Origin: Halomicrobium mukohataei DSM 12286
GTDB lineage: Archaea > Halobacteriota > Halobacteria > Halobacteriales > Haloarculaceae
DNA length: 32,000 bases
NCBI RefSeq assembly: GCF_000023965.1
Contig: NC_013202.1
Span: forward strand, 2,400,001 to 2,432,000
Reading direction: 5' to 3'
The translations under genes and the position numbers were made by a program. Every line of letters starts with the position of its first letter. The first letter of the stretch is position 1. Positions 1,522 to 31,382 of the stretch are shown in pieces. The notes beneath the pieces were generated by a model that was not told where the DNA came from, made no database searches, and saw only the letters and a program-made list of their open reading frames with translations.

Positions 1522-2559
1522 CTAACAGATATCGTACACGTGCTCGTCGTAGACGGTGCGAACGCGGTCGCCCCACTCGTGGGTGTACGTGTCGATCACG
1601 TCCTGGGCCACGTCGCCGCGCAGGTACTTCACGATCCCGCGATCACCAGTTCGATCCCGGAGGTGTGTCGTGAAGAAGTGCCTGAAGTAGTGCGGCGTCA
1701 CGTTCTGGGCCGCATCGCCGCCGTCCTGGTACCAGCCCCGGTCGCGTGCGTGGCGTTCGACGACGTGGTGGACCATGTCCGGCGTGAGTCGTTTCCCCCA
1801 GTCTCCGCTCGTCGACGTGAACAGCGGCTCTGCGGTCGATCTCGGATCTGGGCGGACGGCCAGCCACCGTTCGAGTACGTCGCCCAGTTCCGCGTCGACG
1901 GGGACCGTCGTGTCCCGTTTTCGCTTGTTCGAGGCCGTCCGCTCTTCGCCGTTGACGACCGCGCCACGCGCCGGCTCGGCCGAGACGAACAGCGAATCGG
2001 GGCGCTCTTCGAGCTGTGGCCGAATCGCAGTCCCCGCCGTGACCGCACACTCCGACAGGTGCAGGTCACGAACGTCGAGATTACAGAGCTCGCCCGCACG
2101 CATCCCGGTCTTCAACAGCGTCACGACGACCGCTCGCTCCAGGGGATGGCCGATGTCCCGGACGAACGATCGCATCGCCGGGATAGGGATCTCTCGGCGC
2201 TGGGGGTCGGTGTCGATCGTCTCGTCCATCTCCTCCATCACCAGCGCCATCGGATTCTCCTCGAAGGTTCCGACCTGATTCATGTAGGCGTAGAACCGAT
2301 GCAAGTATGAGGCGTACGTCGCGACGGTCGAGTCACTCTGCTCGTCTCTGAGCCCGTGGACGTACGCCATACAGTCTCGATGGGTCGCTTCGGCCAGTCC
2401 GACCGGCCGGGCTCCGCTGTCGAGGAAGGACTCGAACTCCCGGAGCACGCGCTCGTAGTACTCCCGCGTTCGATCCGTCTTTCCGTGGTAGGTCATATCG
2501 TCCAGGAAGTAGCCGACCGGATCCTCGCTCGCGTCGACGGCGTCGGTGTCGGAGCTCAT
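1522..2559 (-). CDS. Tyrosine recombinase / phage-type integrase
   Basis: Track ORF 1522..2682. The likely start is ATG 2559, which overlaps the upstream gene stop as ATGA. It has an N-terminal SAM-like core-binding region (YYERVLREFESFL...YASYLHRFYAYM). Catalytic signatures are LLKTGMRAGEL (Arg), HYFRHFF (H-x-x-R) and DTYTH (Tyr). Confidence 0.85.
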   Translation of the reverse strand: MSSDTDAVDASEDPVGYFLDDMTYHGKTDRTREYYERVLREFESFLDSGARPVGLAEATHRDCMAYVHGLRDEQSDSTVATYASYLHRFYAYMNQVGTFEENPMALVMEEMDETIDTDPQRREIPIPAMRSFVRDIGHPLERAVVVTLLKTGMRAGELCNLDVRDLHLSECAVTAGTAIRPQLEERPDSLFVSAEPARGAVVNGEERTASNKRKRDTTVPVDAELGDVLERWLAVRPDPRSTAEPLFTSTSGDWGKRLTPDMVHHVVERHARDRGWYQDGGDAAQNVTPHYFRHFFTTHLRDRTGDRGIVKYLRGDVAQDVIDTYTHEWGDRVRTVYDEHVYDIC

Positions 2560-2999
2560 TTCTTGACGTACCCTCCCTCTCGCCCGCTGTATCTGATCTC
2601 GTCGCGCGCTTGGAGATCCTGTAGCGTCTCGTCCAGTTGCGCTTCGATGTCGTCGGTCACTGCCGCGACCAGCTCGTCCCACTCGTAGCTGTCGCCGTCG
2701 GCGAGGGTCGAGAGAACCCGGTCTTCCAGACGCTGACCCTGGGGGTCGGCGTCCGATTGTTCCCCTTCACCGCCTTCAGCTACTGTCGACGGTTCGATCG
2801 AAGACGAGTCGGCAGTAAAACCACGTCTCCCGGCCTGTACCATCGATCTGACGAACTCGCTGAGGCTCATGTCGAGTTCGTCGGCGTGTGCCTGCCACTC
2901 CTGTTTCTGATAGGTCGGAACGTAGGACTGAATCCTCGCCCGGGAGGTGTCGACGCCGCTGTCACGTGCCATATCGATCCCGTCACTTCCCAGCCACAT
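2556..2999 (-). CDS. Ribbon-helix-helix (CopG-like) small DNA-binding protein coupled to the integrase
   Basis: The segment SYVPTYQKQEWQAHADELDMSLSEFVRSMVQAGRRGF looks like an RHH beta-alpha-alpha unit and is followed by an acidic tail. Its stop overlaps the integrase ATG (ATGA). Start is ATG 2999 (leaderless relative to the TATA-like palindrome at 3016..3039) or ATG 2972. Confidence 0.5.
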   Translation of the reverse strand: MWLGSDGIDMARDSGVDTSRARIQSYVPTYQKQEWQAHADELDMSLSEFVRSMVQAGRRGFTADSSSIEPSTVAEGGEGEQSDADPQGQRLEDRVLSTLADGDSYEWDELVAAVTDDIEAQLDETLQDLQARDEIRYSGREGGYVKK

Positions 3000-3015
3000 C
3001 AATCTAACTCACAAT

Positions 3016-3039: not shown

Positions 3040-3533
3040 GAAGTGCTGTCCTATAGCAGCCGCCAACTGATATCTTATTTGTGAATCTGTGCTCAGATAG
3101 CACTAAAGATTATATCCACAAATAAGTATTGTTCTAACAGCAGCAACACAACTCGCCGACAGCGCCAATCGATCTGGTCGGCAGCGGCCGCTCGCTGTGG
3201 ACGATGCCGACTGTCGCCGTGTCGGAACACCGCGACTGTGGGTACGCTCTGCGACGCAGGCGCTCTTGCACGACTCGCCGCATCGGACGAGACTCTGGCA
3301 CGGAGCCCATCGCGTACGACTTCGAGAGATCTCTGTGCTCGAACGAGCGACGATCGGATGAAAAGATCCTATCGGACGGCTGCCGGTCGTGGCGACACTC
3401 GATAGCCGGTACGTCACACGATCGACTGTCACCGTGGTTAGCTATTTCCGGCCCTGTGGCCTCCAGTCGTTTACAGAGTCACAGCCGACGGCGGCAATCC
3501 ATGAGGGACCGGTTCGATTCGACGCCGCCACCA

Positions 3534-3611
3534 TACTGCCGGCTGTCCGTCTGTACAGACCGTTGCGACCCCGTGGTCACGACTCTCTCGAAACGGTGAC
3601 AGCCGGCAGTA
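3534..3611. mobile_element. Family-A 78-bp palindromic MITE-like element, copy A1 (diverged)
   Basis: TACTGCCGGCTGT...ACAGCCGGCAGTA termini with an inner hairpin. Flanks are CCA / TCA. The right flank TCA is the TGA stop of the Nudix-like gene on the minus strand. Confidence 0.75.
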
Positions 3612-4109
3612 TCAGTCCAGGAATACGTCCGTCCCCGGAATCACGTCGGCATCTGCGGGCAGTTCGTCGAACCACTCGACCGCGTGGACCGGTTCGCCTG
3701 CCGGTTCCACGGCAGTGAGATCGTACGCTCCCGACATGGGGACGCCGCCGAAGGTGACGAATCCCCGCGTTGCGGTCCGTTCGCCGCCGTCCGTTTCGAC
3801 GGTGACCTGCCAGACGCCTTCGATCGTCGCCCGAACGTGATCGACGATCGCAGTCGTGAACGCCTCGTCCGGTGTCACGCTTTCGACGGGGATCTTCCAC
3901 GAGCAGGTGTCCGTTTGCTGTCGGAGGAGGAGCTCGCCCGCTGGGTTCGTGATGCCCACGCAAGCGAGATCTGGGAGGTCTCTCATCCGGTCGACGACTG
4001 CCCGGTCGACGACGTCTCGCTGCTCGTGATACGGCACTGGATCGTCCGCAGAGAGGCGCTCGTAGTCGACGATCGGTTCGATCTCCGGAGATGGGGTGTC
4101 TGTCGTCAT
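3612..4109 (-). CDS. Hypothetical protein, Nudix-fold-like with a degenerate Nudix box
   Basis: 165 aa, acidic. The segment WKIPVESVTPDEAFTTAIVDHVRATIEGV aligns loosely to GX5EX7REUXEEXGU, but the catalytic Glu residues are not conserved. It is bracketed by elements A1 and A2. Confidence 0.5.
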   Translation of the reverse strand: MTTDTPSPEIEPIVDYERLSADDPVPYHEQRDVVDRAVVDRMRDLPDLACVGITNPAGELLLRQQTDTCSWKIPVESVTPDEAFTTAIVDHVRATIEGVWQVTVETDGGERTATRGFVTFGGVPMSGAYDLTAVEPAGEPVHAVEWFDELPADADVIPGTDVFLD

Positions 4110-4196
4110 GGTGGGTGGGTTGTGGCGTGGCTCGACCGAAGCGAGCGTTCCCGGCGGACGTTCGAGCGAGGCCCCGCGAAATCAGTGTTCGACTGA

Positions 4197-4274
4197 TACT
4201 GCCGGCTGTAAGTCTGTACAGAATTTCGCGACCACGAGGTCGCGAATATCTTGAAACAGTTACAGCCGGCAGTA
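4197..4274. mobile_element. Family-A element, copy A2
   Basis: TACTGCCGGCTGTAAGTCTGTACAGAATTTCGCGACCACGAGGTCGCGAATATCTTGAAACAGTTACAGCCGGCAGTA. Perfect TGA direct repeats flank it at 4194..4196 and 4275..4277. Confidence 0.85.
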
Positions 4275-4835
4275 TGACAAGCGGCGGACTAATGAATGTA
4301 CCGGCAGTTCGGAAGGCGGATCCGTGCCGGATATCCTCCCGTCGATCGGATAGGCCGGCACAGATCCGCCAACTGCACCTCGGCCTTTCACCCCCAGGGC
4401 TTTCGGTGCTGTCAGTTGCTTCGGCCAATCTCCGCACCTTCGGACAGTCGATCGTCGCCACAGCCCGGCGCTTGGCGACGGATCTCGACGCCACTACCGA
4501 CGACGGTCGGTGCGGACGAGCCTCTCGCTGGTCTCTCGACGGCTCGATCCGTCCTCGTCGGCTGCCGTCCGGCAGCGGATCGCGAGTGTGACTCTAGGGC
4601 TGGCGTCTTCGATCGTTTCTCGTCTGTGGTCGCCATATATGATCAAGTTCTTTCATTTCTGCCCATCAGAAGTGGCCGCAGTGAGACTGATAAATTGCAT
4701 AGCGCTATACAGAAGTGAGCGTGCGAACGACAGTGAACGCTACGTTTCGCACGGATCGGTGTCGCCCTGGACCGGATCGATCGCACGACGATGTTCGACC
4801 GTGAGAACGGCGACGAGCGTCCGTACCAGAGGTGG

Positions 4836-4919
4836 GGTCAGTACAGTAGCGAGTCAAGAGGCCAGTACAGTAGCGAGTCGAGAGGCCAGTACAGTAGCGA
4901 GTCGAGAGGCCAGTACAGA
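4836..4919. repeat. 24-bp tandem repeat, about 3.5 units (GGCCAGTACAGTAGCGAGTCGAGA)
   Basis: Units at 4836, 4860 and 4884, plus a partial unit at 4908. Units 2 and 3 are identical and unit 1 has 2 mismatches. The period of 24 is divisible by 3. Confidence 0.9.
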
Positions 4920-5032
4920 ATATCGCCGACGCTCGTAGACGGCGAGGATCATCCCGGTGGTGCCGAACACTCTGCTCGCGTTCGAGGCGCACGCTTCGCC
5001 GTCGGCGTCGTCACAGCCCCCGACCCGCCTCA

Positions 5033-5109
5033 TACTGCCGGCTGTACGTCTGTGGAGAGTTTCGCGACCCCGTGTCGCGAATACGTTGAAACAGTGATAG
5101 CTGGCAGTA
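5033..5109. mobile_element. Family-A element, copy A3 (77 bp)
   Basis: TACTGCCGGCTGTACGTCTGTGGAGAGTTTCGCGACCCCGTGTCGCGAATACGTTGAAACAGTGATAGCTGGCAGTA. Flanks are TCA / TCG. Confidence 0.8.
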
Positions 5110-5165
5110 TCGGGAGAGAGGGTCCCAGCGATGCGGGACACGATAGCGCGTGTCCGTCGGGGTGA

Positions 5166-5243
5166 TACCGCCGGCTGTACGTCTGTATAGAATTTCGCGA
5201 CCCCGTGGTCGCGAATATCTTGTAACAGTTACAGCCGGCAGTA
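5166..5243. mobile_element. Family-A element, copy A4
   Basis: About 6 mismatches to A2 over 78 bp by hand alignment. Flanks are TGA / CGA. Confidence 0.85.
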
Positions 5244-5309
5244 CGAGAAGCGTGGTCCCGACGGCATCGCCGAAACGACGGATCGAGACGAGAATCCGGA
5301 ATTACGTCG

Positions 5310-10206: not shown

Positions 10207-10309
10207 CGACACGAGCCGGCAGTGATACCGCTGGCCGTCGCTGGGGGATGTCCACCCGAGATGGGAAACTGCGTCACGGATAGACGGCCGGCGGTGTGAA
10301 TATGTGCAG

Positions 10310-19663: not shown

Positions 19664-20921
19664 TTCGGAGGTGCTGGTCGTCGGCGGCGGGCTCGCGGGC
19701 GTGACGAGCGCGGTCGCGGCCGCCCGCGCGGGTGCGGACGTGCGCCTGGTCTCCTACAAGCAGAGCTCGCTCCGGCAGGCCTCCGGGCTGATCGACGTGC
19801 TCGGCTACGTCGGCGACGAGGTCGTCGTCGATCCGTACGACGCGATTCCGGAGCTCCACGAAGACCACCCCTACCGTCTCGTGGGCGTCGAGACGGTTCG
19901 GGACGCGATGGCGCTGTTCGACGAGACCGTCGACGGCTACCACGGCGACCACACCGAGACCAACGCACTGCTCCCGACCCACGGCGGGACGGTCAAGCCG
20001 ACCGCGCGCTACCCCGCCGGAGCCGCCGAGGGCGTCGCCAGCGACGACCGGGACACGCTCCTTGTCGGCTTCGAGCGGCTGGTCGACTTCGACGCACCGC
20101 TCGCCGCGAGTCACGTCGAGGCCGCGGGCGCGCCGTTCTCGGCCGACGGCGTGACGATCACGTTCCCGGGAGATCTCCAGGCCGACGCCAAGGTCACTCG
20201 GTACGCGAAGCTGCTCGACCAGAACAGTCCCGTCGCAGTCGACGGCCAGAAGGTCGACACCCGGACCGCGCTCGCCGAACGGATCGCCCCCCACCTCGAC
20301 GGCCACGAACGCGTCGGCTTCCCGGCGGTGCTGGGCGACGATCACACCGACGCGGTGCGGGCGACGCTGGCCGAGGAGCTCGGGGTGGCCGTCTTCGAAG
20401 TCCCGATGGGGCCGCCCTCGCTGCCGGGACTGCGCCTCGAAGACCGTCTCTTCGAGGCGCTCGACCGGTCCGGCACGCGCTACGAGGTCGGCAACCCCGT
20501 CGTCGACTACGAGGGCGAGGATCGGATCGAACGCGTGGTCGTCGAACGGAACGGCTCTCGGGTCCCCTACAGCGCCGACCAGTACGTCCTCGCGACGGGC
20601 GGGCTGGTCAGCAAGGGCGTCGAGAGCGACCGCGAGGGCGTTCGAGAGCCGATCTTCGACTGTCACGTCCCACATCCGAAAGACCGGTACGACTGGTTCG
20701 AAGACGGCGTGTTCGACGACCACGCGTTCGCGCGCTTCGGCGTCGACGTTGGGAGCGACTTGCGGCCACGTGCGGCCGGCGGAAGCGTGGAGTTCGAGAA
20801 CCTCAGAGCGGCTGGGGCGACGATCGGCGGCTACGACTTCGCGGCCGAGAAGTCCGGCAGCGGCGTCTCGATCGCGACCGGCTACGCGGCCGGGAGAGCG
20901 GCGACGGAGGATCTGACATGA
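19653..20921 (+). CDS. glpB: Glycerol-3-phosphate dehydrogenase subunit B
   Basis: 422 aa. It has the dinucleotide fold [15 protein letters not shown]. It overlaps the glpA stop and its own stop overlaps the glpC start. Confidence 0.85.
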
Positions 20922-22303
20922 GTGATTCAGCTGACACACCGACGGAGGAGTCGTTCGAACCGACGGAACCGAACACGGGCGAGGAGTTCGAGCCGGTCCA
21001 GGTGTTCCCCGACGAGGAGACGATGGACCTGCGGCCCGGCGCGGACTCCTGTACGAAGTGTAGTACCTGCGATACGAACTGTCCGGTCGCGGAAGTCGAC
21101 GACGAGTTCCCGGGGCCGAAGTTCCAGGGACCGGAGCAGTGGCGACTCAAGCAGACCGACGACGGCGACGAGTTCGCCATCGACGACTCCATCATGGACT
21201 GCTCGAACTGCATGCGCTGTGACGACGCCTGTCCCTCGGGTGTCCCGCTCAGCCAGATGCACAACGAGGCCCGCGGCGAGTACGTCGACGAGCAGATGAG
21301 CAAGCTCTCGACGGAGTACTGGCGCAACCGGATCCTCGCCAACTACCGCACGTCCGCGTGGCTGGCGAGCAAGGTCCCCCGGATCGCCAACGTCGCGATG
21401 AACTTCGGGCCGGCTCGCTGGGTCATGGAGAAGACCCTCGGTGTCACGAGCGAGCGGGAGTTCCCCGCCTTCGCGACGGAGACGTTCTCCGAGTGGTGGG
21501 CCGCCCAGGGCGGCGCTGCCGGTTCCCGCGAGCGCGCTCGCGACGCCCGCGAACGCCGCGGCGAACCCCTCGACGCCGACAAGAAGGTCGCGTACTTCCA
21601 CGGCTGTTACTCCGAGTACAACACCCCCGAGGTCGCGCGGGCCCTCGTTCGCGTGTACGAGCACTTCGGCTACGAGATCGTCGTGCCCGAGCAGGGCTGT
21701 TCGGGAACGCCGATGTTCGCAAACGGGATGCTCGACGACGCCCGCCGCCACGCCGAGGTCAACGTCTCTTCGATGGCCGATCTGGTCGAGGAGGGGTACG
21801 ACGCCATCGCCTCCTGTACGTCGTGCTCGCTGGCGCTGCGACAGGAGTATCCCGAGCTGTTCGACATCGACGGCATCGAAGACGTGGCCGAGAACACCTT
21901 CGAGTCCATCGAGTACCTCCGGATCCACGAAGACGTGCGCGGTGCGCTCCAGGACGCCGAGATCGGGGACGAACTCGCCGAAGAGTTCGCCTACCACGCG
22001 CCGTGTCACGCCCGCAACCAGGGGCTCGAACGGCAGGCCGTCGAGCTGTTCCGCGATCTCGACGGCGTCGCAGTCGAGGACGTGGGCGACTCCTGTTCGG
22101 GCATCTCGGGCACCTACGGCTGGAAAGACGAGAAGTACGAGAAGTCGATGGCCATCGGTGAAGAGATGTTCGACCACATGGAGGACGTCGAGAGCACCAC
22201 CGGTATGACCGAGTGTCCCACCTGCTCGATGCAGATGGAACACGGTACTGGCTACGACATCCGACACCCGATCGAGCTGGTCGCGGCGGCGCTGGTCGAG
22301 TGA
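20918..22303 (+). CDS. glpC: Glycerol-3-phosphate dehydrogenase subunit C (Fe-S / CCG-domain protein)
   Basis: 461 aa. Two ferredoxin-type clusters are present (CTKCSTCDTNCP, CSNCMRCDDACP), plus two Cys-rich CCG-like repeats. The stop TGA 22301..22303 doubles as the left target duplication of element B1. Confidence 0.9.
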   Translation: MSDSADTPTEESFEPTEPNTGEEFEPVQVFPDEETMDLRPGADSCTKCSTCDTNCPVAEVDDEFPGPKFQGPEQWRLKQTDDGDEFAIDDSIMDCSNCMRCDDACPSGVPLSQMHNEARGEYVDEQMSKLSTEYWRNRILANYRTSAWLASKVPRIANVAMNFGPARWVMEKTLGVTSEREFPAFATETFSEWWAAQGGAAGSRERARDARERRGEPLDADKKVAYFHGCYSEYNTPEVARALVRVYEHFGYEIVVPEQGCSGTPMFANGMLDDARRHAEVNVSSMADLVEEGYDAIASCTSCSLALRQEYPELFDIDGIEDVAENTFESIEYLRIHEDVRGALQDAEIGDELAEEFAYHAPCHARNQGLERQAVELFRDLDGVAVEDVGDSCSGISGTYGWKDEKYEKSMAIGEEMFDHMEDVESTTGMTECPTCSMQMEHGTGYDIRHPIELVAAALVE

Positions 22304-22383
22304 TACGGACGGTTGTCGGCGTTTACCCAGTCGACCGCACGACGGCGTACGGTCGATCTGGTAACGACCTACAACTTTCCGTA
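22304..22383. mobile_element. Family-B 80-bp palindromic MITE-like element, copy B1
   Basis: TACGGACGGTTGTCGGCGTTTACCCAGTCGACCGCACGACGGCGTACGGTCGATCTGGTAACGACCTACAACTTTCCGTA. Perfect TGA / TGA flanks. Confidence 0.85.
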
Positions 22384-22419: not shown

Positions 22420-22498
22420 TACGGATTATTGTAGCGATTTACCGGAGATCGTCTACTCCGTGGCGACGATCACCGGTAAGCAACTACAATAAACCGTA
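22420..22498. mobile_element. Family-B-related 79-bp hairpin element, copy B2 (same termini, different interior)
   Basis: TACGGATTATTGTAGCGATTTACCGGAGATCGTC...GACGATCACCGGTAAGCAACTACAATAAACCGTA forms a near-perfect hairpin. Flanks are perfect TCA / TCA within C..G. The right TCA is the usp stop codon. Confidence 0.8.
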
Positions 22499-22951
22499 TC
22501 AGTGGTCGCCCCGGACGAAAGTCACCGGGCACGGCGATTCGAGCAGGACGTGCTGGGCCGTCGACCCGAACACGGCCTTGCCGGTCGGTGACCGACGGCG
22601 ACCGCCGACGATCAGGTGATCGGCCCCTTCCTCGGTCGCGAGGTCGACGATCCGTGCGCCGTGTTCGCCGATCCGACCGGTGATCCGGTAGTCGATCTTC
22701 GCGTCCTCCAGCGAGTCCTTGACCTCACGGACGATCGAGAGTCGGCTCGTCACCTCGTCGACGTCCGCGTCGGCCGGATCGCTGAAGTCGAGTCGTTCGG
22801 TCGCGTTGTCGTACTCTTCTGGGGTGAACACGTGAGACAGGATCACCGACGCGCCGGTGGCTCCGGCGATGTCGATGACCGTCTCGGTGAGTTCGTCGAT
22901 GCGTTCGCTGTCGGTGTGTCCGAGTGCCAGCATGACTGTCTCTATCGCCAT
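22499..22951 (-). CDS. Universal stress protein (UspA family)
   Basis: The start is internal ATG 22951 of track ORF 22499..23140: MAIETVMLALGHTDSE...GADHLIVGGRRRSPTGKAVFGSTAQHVLLESPCPVTFV. A TATA (TTTTTGTA on the minus strand, 22974..22981) lies about 27 nt upstream. Confidence 0.85.
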   Translation of the reverse strand: MAIETVMLALGHTDSERIDELTETVIDIAGATGASVILSHVFTPEEYDNATERLDFSDPADADVDEVTSRLSIVREVKDSLEDAKIDYRITGRIGEHGARIVDLATEEGADHLIVGGRRRSPTGKAVFGSTAQHVLLESPCPVTFVRGDH

Positions 22952-22973
22952 GTCCGTGACATCTATGCCACCG

Positions 22974-22981
22974 TACAAAAA
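22974..22981 (-). promoter_or_regulatory. TATA box for usp, embraced by inverted repeat CCACCG...CGGTGG (22968..22991)
   Basis: Read directly. The spacing to ATG 22951 fits a leaderless transcript. Confidence 0.4.
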
Positions 22982-23191
22982 CGTTCGGTGGCCGGTCCGT
23001 AGTGACGAGGCGACGCGCTGAGACCGACCGAGGAGCGATGTCGTGGCGGATACAGACGGTAGGCCAACGCCACCACGGATGGTCGAACGTAGCTTAATTC
23101 TTACACTTTGTGTCGTGTGACGAACGCTGCGATGTTTCAAAAACTGATACGTCCGAACTCTCGCCCGCGTCCGTGCGAAACGTGATGGAGA

Positions 23192-24832
23192 CTACTGTCG
23201 TCGCCGGCCCACGAGTGCCACACCGAGCGCGACGACCGTGAGAGCCAGGTAGACGACCGGGATCCCCGCCGACGCCGTCGACGGCCGGGCGGCGACGTAA
23301 TCGAGCGCGCCGAGTCCGTTGACGGGGCCGAGGTACCACGCCGTCAGATAGGCGATCTCGAAGCTCTTGGATCGCCCGGTCCAGACGCCCAGCGCGAGCG
23401 CGATCGCCGGCAACGACAGGACGGCCGCGAGCCAGCCCGCGAGCGCACCGTCCATCCCGGAGAGGGCGAACCGGACGGGTGCGGGCACGGACACCAACAG
23501 CCCGATCGCGACGCCGGACGCGTAGGTCGCGCCCAAGAGCCGGATCGGTCTGCTGCCGACGAACACCAGCTCTGTCGTCCGGTATCGCCGTTCGCGCGTC
23601 CCGAGTGCCGACCACGCCGAGAGCGGGAGCAAGAGCGCGATCGGGACGACCAGCGTGCGGACGACACCGATCGGCGCGACGGCAGTCGCGAGAACGGCCA
23701 GCGCGGCCGCAGCGTACCACCACCGAGGGTAGCCACGAACCGCCATCCGGAGTTCGGCCAGCAAGACGGGGACGGGCGAGCCGCCGTCGCGGCTGACGGG
23801 TGCGAGGTCGACATCGACCGACGAATCCGCCGTCGTCGACGGTTCGACCTCGTCGTCCGCGGTCTCTCGATCGGACTCCGAGCGAGAGAGGAACGACCAG
23901 CGCGTCGAGTCGTCGAACCGGTCGAACGCGAGCCAGGCCCCTCCGAGGAATCCACACGCGGCGGCGAGTACCGGGAGACGGGCCACGAGCCGCGGCCCGG
24001 TCCAGGCGATCCCGTCCCACGTGAACTCGGCGAGACCGCCCGGATCGTCCGTGTAGGTGAAGCCGAAGACCGACCCGTCGAAGGCGGGATACTGGGCCGC
24101 GATCGACTGGACCATGCTGTCGCGGACGACCGCGAGTCCGACGAGATCCAGCGGCGCGTCCGGTGCGATCCCGGCTACGATGGCGGTCAGCGCGAGCAGG
24201 AAGTAGATCACGGTACCAGCAGTGCCACGGAGCGGTCCGATCGTCTCGAAACAGACCGCGACCGCCGCGACGACGGCCATGGCCGGGATCGTGATCAGGA
24301 GGAACGGCGAGACCAACGCCCAGGGGTCGAACGCGCCCACGCCGACGAAGAGCGAGGCGACGCCGGTCGAAGCGAGCAGGACCAGCGTCCCGAACGCGAG
24401 GACGGCGACGTTGCTCAGCCACTTCCCCAGGAGGTACTGGCCGTTCGACAGCGACGAGGGCGCGATCAGTTCGCTCACCCCCGTCTCCAGGTCCCTGCCG
24501 ATGCTGCCTTTCACGAGGGAGAATCCGAAGAGGACGAGCACCGTCGTGCCGATGACGGCCGTCATCCCAGCGAGCCAGGCGATCGTCGGGCGGCCGGTGT
24601 AGTCGGTGCCGACCACCAGCGTCGAATCGACGGTGACGATCTTCACGAAGTACGCGACCAACAGCGGCACGACGAGGAACTTCGTCGAGCGCGACCGCTC
24701 TCTGAGGTCCGCCAGTGCCACGGCGACGACCGGTCTGATACTGCCGGCTGTAACTGTTTCGAGATATTCGCGAACCCGTGGTCGCGAAATTTCGTGCAGA
24801 CTTACAGCCGGCAGTATGAGTGGCCCGGTCAT
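23192..24832 (-). CDS. ABC-2-type transporter permease (large, multi-TM) carrying an in-frame family-A element near its 5' end
   Basis: The start ATG 24832 overlaps the ATPase stop (ATGA). The protein is long and hydrophobic (LVVPLLVAYFV, GMTAVIGTTVLVLFGF, VAVLAFGTLVLLA...). Codons 6-32 are encoded by element A5. Confidence 0.75.
   Translation of the reverse strand: MTGPLILPAVSLHEISRPRVREYLETVTAGSIRPVVAVALADLRERSRSTKFLVVPLLVAYFVKIVTVDSTLVVGTDYTGRPTIAWLAGMTAVIGTTVLVLFGFSLVKGSIGRDLETGVSELIAPSSLSNGQYLLGKWLSNVAVLAFGTLVLLASTGVASLFVGVGAFDPWALVSPFLLITIPAMAVVAAVAVCFETIGPLRGTAGTVIYFLLALTAIVAGIAPDAPLDLVGLAVVRDSMVQSIAAQYPAFDGSVFGFTYTDDPGGLAEFTWDGIAWTGPRLVARLPVLAAACGFLGGAWLAFDRFDDSTRWSFLSRSESDRETADDEVEPSTTADSSVDVDLAPVSRDGGSPVPVLLAELRMAVRGYPRWWYAAAALAVLATAVAPIGVVRTLVVPIALLLPLSAWSALGTRERRYRTTELVFVGSRPIRLLGATYASGVAIGLLVSVPAPVRFALSGMDGALAGWLAAVLSLPAIALALGVWTGRSKSFEIAYLTAWYLGPVNGLGALDYVAARPSTASAGIPVVYLALTVVALGVALVGRRRQ
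24739..24816. mobile_element. Family-A element, copy A5, inverted relative to A1-A4, inside the permease CDS
   Basis: About 6 mismatches to the reverse complement of A2 over 78 bp. Perfect TGA / TGA duplications lie at 24736..24738 and 24817..24819 within C..G (CTGAG target). Confidence 0.85.
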
Positions 24833-25808: not shown

Positions 25809-25928
25809 ATCCACTGGTGGATCGGATCGAGTATAAAAGCAGAACGAGAGCTTCAGAGTCGGAAGTCCGGTCGAAACCGTCGACCGTCGCTGTCTCACGA
25901 TACCCCCAATCCGGTCGAGTAGGAGGCG

Positions 25929-28864: not shown

Positions 28865-29668
28865 ATGCCAACTGCCACGCACGACGGTGTGACGCTCGCC
28901 TACGAACGCTCGGGACCCGCAGACGCCGAGACGGTCGCGTTCGTCGAGGGGCTGAGCTACGGCACCTGGATGTGGCGCTGGCAGCGCGAGGCGCTCTCGG
29001 CGTCCTACGAGACGCTGGTCTGGGACAACCGCGGGACGGGCGACTCCGACGAGCCGCCGGGGCCGTACACCACCGAGCAGATGGCGGGCGACTTCGAGGC
29101 CGTGCTCGACGACGCTGGCGTCGAGACGGCCCACGTCGTGGGTGCGAGCCTGGGCGGGATGATCGCCCAGCAGTACGCGCTCGACTACGATCGGGCCGAC
29201 TCGCTGACGCTGATCGCGACGACGCCGGGCGGCGAGGCGGCGGTCCCGATTCCGGCGGCCACTCGACAGCAGATGCTGAACGTCCCCGAGGAGTACGACG
29301 AGGCGGCGACGATCCGACACAAGATGCGTCCGGCCGTGACGGACGAGTTCTGGGAGGAACGGTCCGACGTGGTCGACCGCATCGTCGAGTGGCGACTGGA
29401 GACCGATCCCTCCGAGGCGGCCTACGAGTGGCAGAGCGCCGCCGCGGTCGGGTTCGACGAGAGCGACAGGCTCGGAGAGATCGACCTGCCGACGCTGATC
29501 GTCCACGGCACCGCCGACGAGGTGATCCCCTTCGAGAACGCGACCCTGCTCGACGAGGCGATTCCCGACAGTCGTCTGGTGGCCGTCGACGGCGGCTCGC
29601 ACCTCTGTTTCATCGAGCGGGCAGACACCGTCAACGAACACCTCCGGTCGTTCCTCGACGATGTCTGA
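28865..29668 (+). CDS. Alpha/beta-fold hydrolase
   Basis: The start is MPTATHDGVTLAYERSG, an internal ATG of track ORF 28802..29668. It has the nucleophile elbow GASLGGM and a C-terminal GSHLCF (His) motif. It overlaps the next gene by 8 nt. Confidence 0.8.
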   Translation: MPTATHDGVTLAYERSGPADAETVAFVEGLSYGTWMWRWQREALSASYETLVWDNRGTGDSDEPPGPYTTEQMAGDFEAVLDDAGVETAHVVGASLGGMIAQQYALDYDRADSLTLIATTPGGEAAVPIPAATRQQMLNVPEEYDEAATIRHKMRPAVTDEFWEERSDVVDRIVEWRLETDPSEAAYEWQSAAAVGFDESDRLGEIDLPTLIVHGTADEVIPFENATLLDEAIPDSRLVAVDGGSHLCFIERADTVNEHLRSFLDDV

Positions 29669-31223
29669 GCACGGTCCCCAGCGGTGGGTGGGTGACTGGA
29701 GCGCACGCAGGCGGGCGCTGTCGCCCGACCGGATCGGACTGGTCGACGCGACCAGCGGCGCGGAGTACACCTACAGACAACTCGACCGCCGCGCCAACGG
29801 CTGTGCCCGCTTGCTGGCCGATCACGGCGTGACCCGCGAGGGCGGGGCAGATCCGGACGCGGGCGGCCGCGTCGCCGTACTCTCACGAAACCGTCCCGAG
29901 TTCGTCGATCTGTTCTTCGCGACTGGCAAGACCGGCGGCGTGCTCGCGCCGCTCTCCCATCGCCTGGCACCGCCGGAACTCGGGACGCTGCTCGACGACG
30001 TTGCCCCGTCGCTACTCGTCGTCGAGGAGCCCTTCGCCGACGACGCGGCCGAGGCCCTCGCCGACGCCGACATCGACTGTCCGGTGCGCTCGCTGGCGAC
30101 GGCGGGCGAGACGACCTGGGACCGCCTCGACGAATCGCTGCCGACCGACCGATCCCCCTACGACGGACCGACGCTGGAGCCGGCAGACCCACACCTGTTC
30201 TTGCACACCGGCGGCTCGACGGGGACCCCCAAAGAGACCGTCGTCAGCCACGAGGCGATCGTCTGGAACGCGACCAACACCGTCACCGCCTGGGGGCTGC
30301 GACCGGACGACGTGACGCCGCTGACGTTCCCGATGTTCCACACCGGCGGGTGGAACGTGTTGACGGTCCCGGTCTTTCACATGGGCGGGACCGTCGTCCT
30401 CGCCCGAGAGTTCGATCCCGGTGAGGTGCTCGAACTGATCGAGGCGCGGTCGGCCACGCTCCTCGTCGCCGTCCCGGCGGTGTTGCGGATGATGGTCGAC
30501 CACGATCGATGGGCCGAAACCGACCTCTCGACGCTGCGACTCGCCAAGTCCGGCGGCGGCCCCTGCCGAGAGTCGGTGCTGTCGGCGTGGTGGGACCGCG
30601 GCGTCGACCTCTCACAGGGGTACGGGCTGACCGAGTGTGGCCCCAACAACTTCGCGATGCCCGACGACTGGCCCAGAGAGAAGGCCGACACAGTCGGCGT
30701 CCCGAACGTCCACGTCGACGTGCGGATCGTCGACGACACCGGTGTGGAGCTGCCCCGCGGTGAGGTCGGTGAGCTCCATCTCCGGTCGCCCCACGCGGCG
30801 ACGGAGTACTGGCACCGGCCGGAGGAAACCGCCGCGACGTTCCGTGACGACGGCTGGCTCGCGACCGGCGACCTCGCGCGAATCGACGACGACGGCTACG
30901 TCAGTATCGAGGGCCGCAAGAAGAACATGTACATCAGCGGCGGCGAGAACGTCTTCCCCGCGGAAGTCGAGGACGCCGTCTCCGCCCATCCGAAGGTCGA
31001 GGACGCCGTCGTCGTGCCCGTCGACGACGACCAGTGGGGCGAGGTCGGTCGCGCCGTCGTCGTCGGCGACGACTCGCTCACGCTCGACGAACTCGCGTCC
31101 TTTCTGGACGGCCGACTCGCGCGGTACAAGCGGCCGAGAGACCTCGTCTTCGTCTCTGCGCTTCCCCGCAGCGGTCCGGACAAGATCGACCGCGACGCGG
31201 TCGCTGACGAGTACGGTTGCTGA
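29661..31223 (+). CDS. Acyl-CoA synthetase / AMP-dependent ligase (ANL superfamily)
   Basis: 520 aa. The AMP-binding motif is LHTGGSTGTPKETVVSH. Also present are GYGLTE, TGDLARIDDDGY and the C-terminal lysine region SGPDKIDR. Confidence 0.85.
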   Translation: MSEHGPQRWVGDWSARRRALSPDRIGLVDATSGAEYTYRQLDRRANGCARLLADHGVTREGGADPDAGGRVAVLSRNRPEFVDLFFATGKTGGVLAPLSHRLAPPELGTLLDDVAPSLLVVEEPFADDAAEALADADIDCPVRSLATAGETTWDRLDESLPTDRSPYDGPTLEPADPHLFLHTGGSTGTPKETVVSHEAIVWNATNTVTAWGLRPDDVTPLTFPMFHTGGWNVLTVPVFHMGGTVVLAREFDPGEVLELIEARSATLLVAVPAVLRMMVDHDRWAETDLSTLRLAKSGGGPCRESVLSAWWDRGVDLSQGYGLTECGPNNFAMPDDWPREKADTVGVPNVHVDVRIVDDTGVELPRGEVGELHLRSPHAATEYWHRPEETAATFRDDGWLATGDLARIDDDGYVSIEGRKKNMYISGGENVFPAEVEDAVSAHPKVEDAVVVPVDDDQWGEVGRAVVVGDDSLTLDELASFLDGRLARYKRPRDLVFVSALPRSGPDKIDRDAVADEYGC

Positions 31224-31382
31224 TACCGTCGGCTCTCATACGGACGGTTGTAGGCGTTTACCCAGTCGACCGCACGACAGCGTGCGGTCGATCTGGTAAA
31301 GACCTACAACTTTCCGTATCAGTCTGTGATGAACGGGCCACCGCCGGACGGCGACCGTCGTGGGACGGTGGGGGTCGGCAGT
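31224..31382. mobile_element. Possible degenerate family-A element (A6) interrupted by B3
   Basis: After removing B3 and one TCA, about 77 bp remain: TACCGTCGGCTCTCAGTCTGT...GTCGGCAGTA. By hand alignment 18/23 positions at the left end and 10/11 at the right end match family A. The interior is diverged. The element begins right after the acs TGA stop. Confidence 0.3.
31239..31318. mobile_element. Family-B element, copy B3
   Basis: 4 differences from B1 over 80 bp. Perfect TCA / TCA flanks at 31236..31238 and 31319..31321 within C..G. Confidence 0.85.

Follow-up and report, generated by a model that had tools for sequence, protein, structure and literature searches.

A stretch of 32,000 nucleotides from the chromosome of Halomicrobium mukohataei DSM 12286 (NC_013202.1, positions 2,400,001 to 2,432,000; hereafter the window, whose coordinates are used below) was found to carry ten copies of short hairpin-shaped repeats in DNA of 65% G+C: five of a family A, one degenerate A-like copy, three of a family B and one B-like remnant. 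The stretch was also placed on the Halomicrobium chromosome CP045142.1 (GCA_009217585.1), at about 3.04-3.07 Mb, and a 627-aa transducer protein encoded in it is identical in the H. mukohataei type strain and in strain JP60. [quoted passage not shown] Very probably they represent an active family of non-autonomous DNA transposons of the Haloarculaceae, which duplicate a TNA triplet on insertion, are moved by a DDE transposase acting in trans and use stop codons as landing sites. An initial annotation of the window had described the five family A copies, all of which were recovered, including the distant one at 24739-24816; it had missed family B, the B-like remnant, the degenerate A-like copy, a third variant (family C) and the association with stop codons. 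The copies and the sequences belonging to them are as follows.

3534-3611: A1, family A, 78 bp; flanks CCA (3531-3533) and TCA (3612-3614)
4197-4274: A2, family A, 78 bp; perfect TGA/TGA duplication (4194-4196, 4275-4277)
4752-4825: B-like degenerate remnant in the A cluster; nhmmer match to the family B profile, E 2e-3
5033-5109: A3, family A, 77 bp, with a 1-nt deletion in the central stem; flanks TCA/TCG
5128-5147: spacer hairpin GGACACG-N6-CGTGTCC between A3 and A4; host sequence outside the element
5166-5243: A4, family A, 78 bp; flanks TGA/CGA
10226-10296: degenerate A-like copy, 71 bp; TGA/TGA flanks; begins 19 nt past the TAG stop of the pyruvate kinase gene
22304-22383: B1, family B, 80 bp; TGA/TGA duplication, the left TGA (22301-22303) being the stop codon of glpC (20918-22303)
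22420-22498: B2, family B, 79 bp; TCA/TCA duplication
24739-24816: A5, family A, 78 bp; perfect TGA/TGA duplication at a cTGAg site
25894-25896: TCA target, unoccupied in the window
31239-31318: B3, family B, 80 bp; TCA/TCA duplication; begins 15 nt past the stop of an AMP-binding gene (29661-31223)
20607-20677 and 21785-21861 of locus L121, just outside the window: two copies of family C, with ends TACCGTCGGCTGT, bracketing moaA, one of them close to its stop codon

The flanking triplets of A1 to A5 are those given in the initial annotation, and the shared termini and inner hairpin described there were equally recovered. With up to two mismatches allowed, the terminal 13-mer of family A, TACTGCCGGCTGT, matched the two strands of the window 17 times, against 0.54 matches expected from shuffled sequences, and the inner hairpin TTCGCGACC-N4-GGTCGCGAA is present in this family. 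Family B elements measure 79-80 bp and end in TACGGAnnnTTGT...ACAAnnnTCCGTA. The terminal inverted repeat is perfect over 13-15 bp, and the families have in common the end motif TAC-N-G-N5-TGT, their size and the plan of the hairpin. The elements are 71-80 bp long, with rare variants of 95-160 bp, and contain no transposase gene.

Comparison with orthologous loci of sister strains, whose flanks are 83-97% identical to those of the window, demonstrated that the copies are insertions. The side carrying glpC, A5 and the B copies was compared with three strains (HM KBTZ05, GCA_041530035.1 and IBSBa; loci L254-L256), in which phosphoenolpyruvate carboxylase is 99% identical to that of the window and the flanks are approximately 97% identical; the A1-A4 cluster was compared with HM KBTZ05 and LC1Hm (L258 and L260) and with H. 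katesii (L259). Each of the eight copies examined (A1-A5 and B1-B3) is missing from at least one sister strain. For A1, A5, B1 and B2 the empty site is clean and holds one triplet: gccgccac-TCA-gtcca for A1 in L258 and L260, and ccggtc-TGA-gtggcccgg, ctggtcgag-TGA-gagcgg and ggta-TCA-gtgatcgc for A5, B1 and B2, respectively, in L254-L256. In the latter three strains the convergent stop codons of glpC and usp lie 19 nt apart; in the window these two stops are occupied by B1 and B2. The sites of A2 to A4 have diverged. A2 is not present in L258 and L260 (its site in L258 being gttcgag-CGA-caggcgg), and A3 and A4 are missing from L258 and L260 (gtc-TCA-cgaggg and caggc-CGA-gaagtg, respectively) and present in H. 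katesii. B3 is missing from L254-L256 with a less clean junction, next to an apparent stub of an older element (TGA-TACCGTCGGCTC) which B3 adjoins in the window. The segment of the B-like remnant has no counterpart in the sister strains. The hairpin in the 50-nt spacer between A3 and A4, already noted in the initial annotation, does exist; it is host DNA, and in L258 and L260, which lack A3 and A4, the spacer is ordinary orthologous sequence that forms no hairpin.

The reciprocal situation was also observed: at the TCA that is unoccupied in the window (25894-25896), the strains of L254-L256 carry a family A copy, which in L254 sits at exactly this position. Two plasmids that are approximately 93% identical to each other provided five more clean empty sites, four of family B and one of family A, each with exactly one triplet. 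The absence of copies from orthologous sites of sister strains indicates that they are recent insertions and not ancestral sequence, ancestry being what the initial annotation had named as a refutation of its reading. The degenerate copy at 10226-10296, by contrast, has orthologues in L258, L259 and L260 and thus occupies the same place in four Halomicrobium strains, so it predates their split. The activity of the family has thus been long-lasting and continued until very close strains diverged. Small size (for MITEs, below about 500-800 bp), terminal inverted repeats, a duplication of fixed length and dispersed multiple copies with empty sites are all found, as in other MITEs.

A5 lies within a gene. 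Together with its duplication it forms an in-frame insertion of 81 bp between codons 5 and 6 of an ABC-2 permease open reading frame (ORF; 23192-24832, minus strand). In the sister strains the permease gene is uninterrupted; its start overlaps the upstream ATPase gene in an ATGA, and its first residues are M-T-G-P-L-R-P-V. Read-through of A5 adds 27 predicted residues, ILPAVSLHEISRPRVREYLETVTAGSI, without a stop, and the frame remains open. In-frame intragenic insertion is also a habit of the Rickettsia palindromic elements, which A5 resembles in that it adds 27 codons in frame, near the N-terminus of a membrane protein, and leaves the ORF open; A5 is, however, a single case, and the family described here is overwhelmingly intergenic or located at stop codons.

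The sole recombinase among the gene calls of the window is a tyrosine integrase (1522-2559), encoded together with a DUF5805 partner at a distance of 1 kb from A1. The attC sites of integrons, too, are imperfectly palindromic and located at gene 3' ends, and the repeats could in principle be att- or attC-like recombination sites for this adjacent enzyme. We consider the probability of this to be negligible. The insertions consist of the bare 78-80 bp element with no cargo, and copies are dispersed on chromosomes and plasmids with no integrase nearby. Although the integrase/DUF5805 pair (1522-3002) adjoins the MITE cluster, it is equally present in strains without A1-A4, which argues that it is unrelated to MITE mobility. 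Beyond this pair, an ArsR/ArsP pair is inserted in this strain relative to its sisters (L121 16074-17415, outside the window).

The target duplication was assessed on 169 further copies from approximately 15 genomes and two plasmids plus metagenomes, namely 56 genome or plasmid copies with both ends intact and 113 non-redundant metagenomic copies among the matches listed. Perfect 3-bp direct repeats, all of the form TNA, flank 124 of the 169, whereas about 2% would be expected by chance. Among the genome and plasmid copies 38 of 56 are perfect (TGA 20, TCA 14, TTA 2, TAA 2) and 13 are off by one base; among the metagenomic copies listed 86 of 113 are perfect (TCA 43, TGA 39, TTA 2, TAA 2) and 25 are off by one base. 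These consistent flanks, together with the empty sites in sister strains and plasmids, bear out the reading of the repeats as a transposition footprint, and the inconsistent flanks that would have spoken against it were not observed. The duplication of TSA proposed in the initial annotation was correct as to a 3-bp duplication, but the triplet is TNA, since TAA and TTA also turn up, if infrequently. Reconstructed from the copies, the target is a palindrome, S-TNA-S (S, C or G). At position -1 it has C in 56%, G in 27% and A in 2% of cases, and at position +1 G in 65%, C in 20% and T in 2%. The flanking C and G of the CTSAG target proposed earlier are indeed favoured (across datasets, C precedes the triplet in 56-79% and G follows it in 65-68%), but they are no rule; the C-TNA-G context is a preference and no requirement, and the site is better described as S-TNA-S.

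The same flanks bear on the idea that the repeats derive from IS200/IS605-type elements (palindrome-associated elements, PATEs) or are REP-like, a Y1 transposase moving them as hairpins of single-stranded DNA. Their architecture is rich in hairpins, and TnpB/IS1341-type genes are common in haloarchaea, one of them lying 250 bp from a truncated copy on the plasmid of H. mukohataei JP60. Such elements, however, lack terminal inverted repeats and target duplications (PMC3119063). Here the inverted repeat extends right to the termini, and the triplet differs between copies (TGA, TCA, TAA, TTA) yet is equal on the two sides of one copy, which needs a duplication; with an inverted repeat to the ends and a matched variable triplet, the elements fall outside the definition of PATEs and of REP/RAYT systems, which have subterminal hairpins and insert beside a fixed oligonucleotide. 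An origin of this kind is therefore highly improbable.

The family occurs in several genera of the Haloarculaceae. A scan of a genome collection with the 14-mer ATACTGCCGGCTGT was unspecific, about 100 of the 120 matches listed being chance matches in unrelated bacteria, and yielded approximately 21 haloarchaeal loci with full copies among the matches listed. Genera and species with copies include Natronomonas, Halovenus, H. katesii, Haloarcula, Salinirussus and Haloplanus, besides several salt-lake metagenome-assembled genomes (MAGs), and a BLAST search of plasmids revealed copies in replicons of Halomicrobium, Haloarcula, Haloplanus and Natribaculum. Outside the Haloarculaceae (Halomicrobium, Haloarcula, Natronomonas, Halovenus and others) only isolated matches were found, in a Haloplanus genome and plasmid and in a Natribaculum plasmid. 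The JP60 plasmid (221,861 bp) carries nine family A and nine family B copies, to which a refined profile added a few weak ones, and plasmid pLC1Hm-01 (223,917 bp) carries 13 family A copies and one family B copy. In hypersaline metagenomes at least 120 loci have exact family A termini 48-56 nt apart, and a collection of viral contigs contained no copies. Extrapolated, not counted, from ten copies in the 32-kb window and about one per 10 kb of plasmid, a genome probably holds a few hundred copies in total. No Rfam family matched at the gathering threshold across the whole window, and no tRNA is located near the elements.

A large share of the copies was found directly at the 3' ends of genes. 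In the window, A1, B1 and B2 are flush with a stop codon: the right-hand TCA of A1 is the stop codon (TGA on the minus strand) of ORF 3612-4109, B1 follows the stop of glpC, and the right TCA of B2 (22499-22501) serves as the stop of usp (22499-23140, minus strand), a gene convergent with glpC. A2 sits 88 bp upstream of where ORF 3612-4109 begins. Of the 18 copies on the JP60 plasmid, 10 adjoin an annotated coding sequence whose stop codon is one copy of the duplication. An open frame of at least 100 codons ending at the flanking triplet adjoins 37 of 60 genome and plasmid copies, against a background of 16%, and 45 of the 113 metagenomic copies among the matches listed, against 13%, so that overall about half of the copies adjoin a gene 3' end. 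TAA stops are used as well, with TAA/TTA duplications in pLC1Hm-01, Halovenus and Natronomonas. The clean empty sites of family B are stop codons in three of three cases on the JP60 plasmid and in the one case on pLC1Hm-01. The same stop may be struck repeatedly. At the stop of a GH2 glycosidase gene pLC1Hm-01 has a family A copy (166547-166625), and at the same stop the JP60 plasmid (29966-30099) has a family B copy inside the duplication of a decayed A copy. The regenerated stop was apparently hit again; a restored stop thus stays a target, and arrays can build up. Of the unoccupied non-coding plasmid sites, 6% (TSA) and 13% (CTSAG) are stop codons, and relative to such sites stop codons are enriched among the insertions with an odds ratio of 8.5 (p = 4e-4). 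Copies were also found in promoter regions and within one gene.

Taken as a single strand, every copy folds much better than shuffled sequences do (z -4.6 to -11), the energies ranging from -18 to -32 kcal/mol for DNA and from about -40 to -50 kcal/mol for RNA; the fold of A2 as DNA has -31.7 kcal/mol (z -11). The structure was examined in an alignment of 110 distinct copies of 78 nt, the metagenomic ones of which had been selected for exact ends. Columns 1-13 pair with 66-78 (the terminal repeat) in 92-100% of these, and copies from genome loci agree. The arm segments of columns 16-28 and their mirrors are for the most part unpaired; by them subfamilies are told apart, and they lend the element an orientation. 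A GC-rich stem is formed by columns 29-39 with 40-50, with several alternative types of Watson-Crick pair (for example CG 71, GC 18 and TA 7 at columns 34/45). Each of the six variable stem columns shares more mutual information with its mirror partner than with any other of the 39 columns of the right half, whereas in the asymmetric arms this does not hold and correlations follow the subfamily. Watson-Crick pairing in the stem amounts to 0.836 versus 0.727 in shuffles, and to approximately 0.3-0.37 if the partner is shifted by 1-3 columns. This partner-specific covariation indicates that base pairing itself is conserved. With copies oriented according to the neighbouring gene, mirror mismatches of the types G:U and A:C in the mRNA sense were equally frequent (77 versus 79), and sense RNA did not fold better than antisense RNA (p = 0.33). 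With both tests negative, the idea of selection at the RNA level on the mRNA sense strand was not borne out. Equal mismatch counts, equal folding of sense and antisense, and mixed orientation suggest that the constraint is strand-neutral, acting on DNA or on RNA from either strand.

Placement at gene ends and a covarying hairpin could also be expected of structural elements selected by the host, such as transcript stabilisers, terminators or protein-binding palindromes at 3' ends, whose position would reflect their function. That about half of the copies are flush with stop codons, that all fold into hairpins and that the stem covaries would fit this explanation. Presence or absence at the strain level together with target duplications nevertheless means insertion, the orientation relative to the adjacent gene is mixed (five versus five for family A), the sense-strand tests were negative, and promoter regions and the inside of a gene are occupied as well, with no Rfam match. 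We therefore regard host-selected function as improbable for the family, although individual copies may have been co-opted later by the host.

The mobilising enzyme was sought in approximately 1.3 Mb of sequence: the window, the approximately 21 genome loci of haloarchaea, both plasmids in full, four loci of sister strains and metagenomic contigs amounting to 784 kb. Three kinds of paired ends were examined, namely family termini separated by 300-4000 bp, inverted repeats in general separated by 600-3500 bp and, independently of the families, TNA-TAC...GTA-TNA pairs separated by 300-5000 bp in metagenomic and genomic loci. Every candidate for a longer element turned out to be a pair of MITEs or a degenerate copy. 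Transposases were not found among the Pfam-annotated gene calls of the window and the sister loci, which are chromosome fragments, and in particular none of the DDE type expected of IS5 or PIF/Harbinger (PF01609, PF13586, PF13359); the earlier statement that the window holds no transposase thus stands for these gene calls. Only IS1595 and TnpB transposases appear in the plasmid annotations, and a 40-kb stretch of an H. hispanica plasmid around one copy has no transposase. Intact IS1595 was rejected as a partner by its unrelated ends and its duplication of 8-9 bp. A large inverted duplication on the JP60 plasmid was likewise rejected, being IS1595 debris; at 60.4-64.2 kb of this plasmid (L125 11.4-15.2 kb) inverted IS1595-type transposase debris brackets an AbrB/PIN toxin-antitoxin pair. 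An ISH3-like element beside A3/A4 in H. katesii was also rejected, its ends being unlike those of the MITEs. Its gene, encoding a 576-aa ISH3/IS4-like DDE transposase (L259 12622-14352), lies directly past A3/A4, at a place that holds different genes in the other strains.

Target duplications of 3 bp with the sequence TNA are typical both of the related PIF/Harbinger superfamily and, within the IS5 family, of the groups IS1031, ISL2 and IS427. Our best guess, inferred from the TNA duplication only, is accordingly an enzyme of IS5/PIF-Harbinger type. The element inserts at a T-N-A triplet, preferably in the context C/G-TNA-G/C, and duplicates this triplet. Under the proposed mechanism, the duplication would mark a cut with a stagger of 3 nt, made by a trans-acting DDE transposase, presumably an IS1031/ISL2/IS427-like member of the IS5 family and relative of PIF/Harbinger. 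TGA and TAA stops are themselves TNA triplets in otherwise GC-rich, gene-dense DNA, and the duplication restores the stop. Stops would thus be the commonest safe landing sites, in keeping with the half of the copies that are flush with 3' ends.

Several observations weigh against this interpretation. No autonomous element with these ends was found in the approximately 1.3 Mb around more than 200 copies, so that the longer, transposase-encoding element with the same termini which the initial annotation had proposed to look for did not materialise. The transposases that do occur nearby (IS1595, TnpB and the ISH3-like one in H. katesii) have ends unrelated to the MITEs. IS5-family ends usually begin with GG or GAG, whereas the ends here begin with TAC. 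Compensatory change in the stem is unlike simple transposase-binding sites and hints at a base-paired DNA intermediate. Finally, the excess of stop codons shrinks when the comparison is confined to the CTSAG context and to intergenic regions below 600 bp, a limit chosen to avoid unannotated genes: 11 of 19 stops versus 10 of 34 other sites are then occupied (odds ratio 3.3, p = 0.08). Homing to stop codons beyond the target preference is therefore weakly supported after this control. In our reading, the pattern is mostly the result of target preference in GC-rich, gene-dense DNA and of selection against insertions in promoters and coding regions; a residual preference for stop codons is possible.

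Alternatively, the repeats could be orphan small mobile repeats, moved not by an insertion sequence with matching ends but by a single-copy enzyme that is host-encoded, domesticated or novel, possibly through hairpin or cruciform DNA; REP elements with their RAYT enzymes, or the small mobile repeats of Haloquadratum, would be parallels. Besides the missing partner, the scarcity of insertion sequences in H. mukohataei replicons and the partner-specific stem covariation without strand bias, which would place the constraint on DNA rather than on sense RNA, argue for this possibility, as do the orphan repeats of 80-110 bp in Haloquadratum, whose terminal repeats match no transposon (PMC3119063). 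On the other hand, an exact duplication of 3 bp whose middle base varies is what DDE chemistry classically produces, and the partners of MITEs are often rare, lost or alike over fewer than 20 terminal bases (PMC3852290). The partner search itself covered genome fragments and required TAC...GTA ends. We give the orphan explanation a low probability, though a clearly higher one than any other alternative to the MITE interpretation. It is equally unlikely, at about the same level, that the repeats exemplify a widespread class of orphan hairpin transposons with an enzyme encoded outside matching repeats (such as a host-resident or domesticated transposase), a base-paired DNA form to which the strand-neutral covariation of the stem would point, stop codons that are regenerated at every insertion as a safe harbour, and arrays at 3' ends.

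Returning to the interpretation as MITEs mobilised in trans, their closest likeness is to the Tourist-like MITEs of the IS5 family and PIF/Harbinger, which are similarly short and non-coding, have terminal inverted repeats and a 3-bp T-N-A duplication, and outnumber their partner. A MITE of Methanosarcina acetivorans (140 bp, 24 copies, 3-bp duplication) has been assigned to an IS5-family partner (PMC3852290). The elements described here differ by their TAC ends, by the lack of an IS5-type partner in the sequence searched and by a near-perfect hairpin over the whole element with a covarying centre. Haloarchaeal MITEs, PATEs and orphan small mobile repeats (SMRs) are well described in Haloquadratum and Halobacterium (PMC3119063, PMC7002104). 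In Haloquadratum walsbyi, SMR-A (about 110 bp) and HqIRS41 (80 bp) carry conspicuous terminal inverted repeats and outnumber the transposons; the SMR repeats match no known transposon, and strain-specific insertions were taken as evidence of their mobility (PMC3119063). The present elements share with them the haloarchaeal host, a similar size and terminal inverted repeats, and they fit the SMR definition as orphan repeats. The TNA duplication does not fit it: Haloquadratum SMRs show no target duplication and favour other mobile elements, whereas here a clean TNA duplication, stop codons and intergenic S-TNA-S sites are found. No reported sequence similarity to the Haloquadratum SMRs was found.

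Correia elements of Neisseria and the ERIC/IRU-type MITEs are about 100-150 bp long and almost entirely self-complementary. The target that they duplicate is short and contains A/T, partners are absent or nearly so, and at gene ends they are frequently transcribed together with the gene. They differ from the present family in being bacterial, in their TA duplication and unrelated sequence, and in having documented roles at the RNA level, for which the sense-strand test was negative here. In a census from 2024, unclassified Haloarculaceae and Halovenus MAGs rank top among archaea for MITEs, and the salt-lake study concerned is the one from which loci L028 and L036 originate (PMC11602168). Bulk MITE catalogues thus almost certainly contain these sequences already. 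The searchable literature, outside which ISfinder lies, yielded neither the exact terminal sequences, nor MITEs of Halomicrobium, nor a named family with these termini, the third outcome that the initial annotation had set against its reading; nor did it yield a description of this family or of its structure, TNA duplication and association with stop codons.

The region around the A cluster shows further peculiarities. ORFs that are probably spurious run through A2-A4, and one of them, ORF 4791-5165, which runs through A3, is annotated in the deposited genome. Inside this ORF, between the B-like remnant and A3, lies a tandem repeat with a 24-nt unit, GGCCAGTACAGTAGCGAGTCGAGA, in about 3.5 copies (4835-4919). 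An A+T-rich stretch at 4620-4720 (catatatgatcaagttctttcatttctg...gataaattgcatagcgctatacag) is located in a gap of 1 kb that holds no genes and otherwise has 65% G+C, and could be a promoter, an origin-like sequence or a remnant of foreign DNA.

Taken together, the family is a solid, if unsurprising, mobile element, to whose description we add that stop codons serve as landing pads, that the hairpin covaries with no apparent strand bias and that a matching mobilising enzyme is missing from the sequence searched. Hairpins of 80 bp behind stop codons, and occasionally inside genes, can mislead gene callers, and the elements break assemblies, as in the short-read Logan contig SRR017869_103 (L122), which ends inside A4. 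Copies differ between strains that are approximately 97% identical, which makes them useful as markers of strains. They could also influence the 3' ends of transcripts, and the stop-codon pattern shows how a simple S-TNA-S preference in GC-rich, gene-dense DNA makes stop codons into landing pads. The elements thus provide a well-documented case of a currently active MITE superfamily in the Haloarculaceae.

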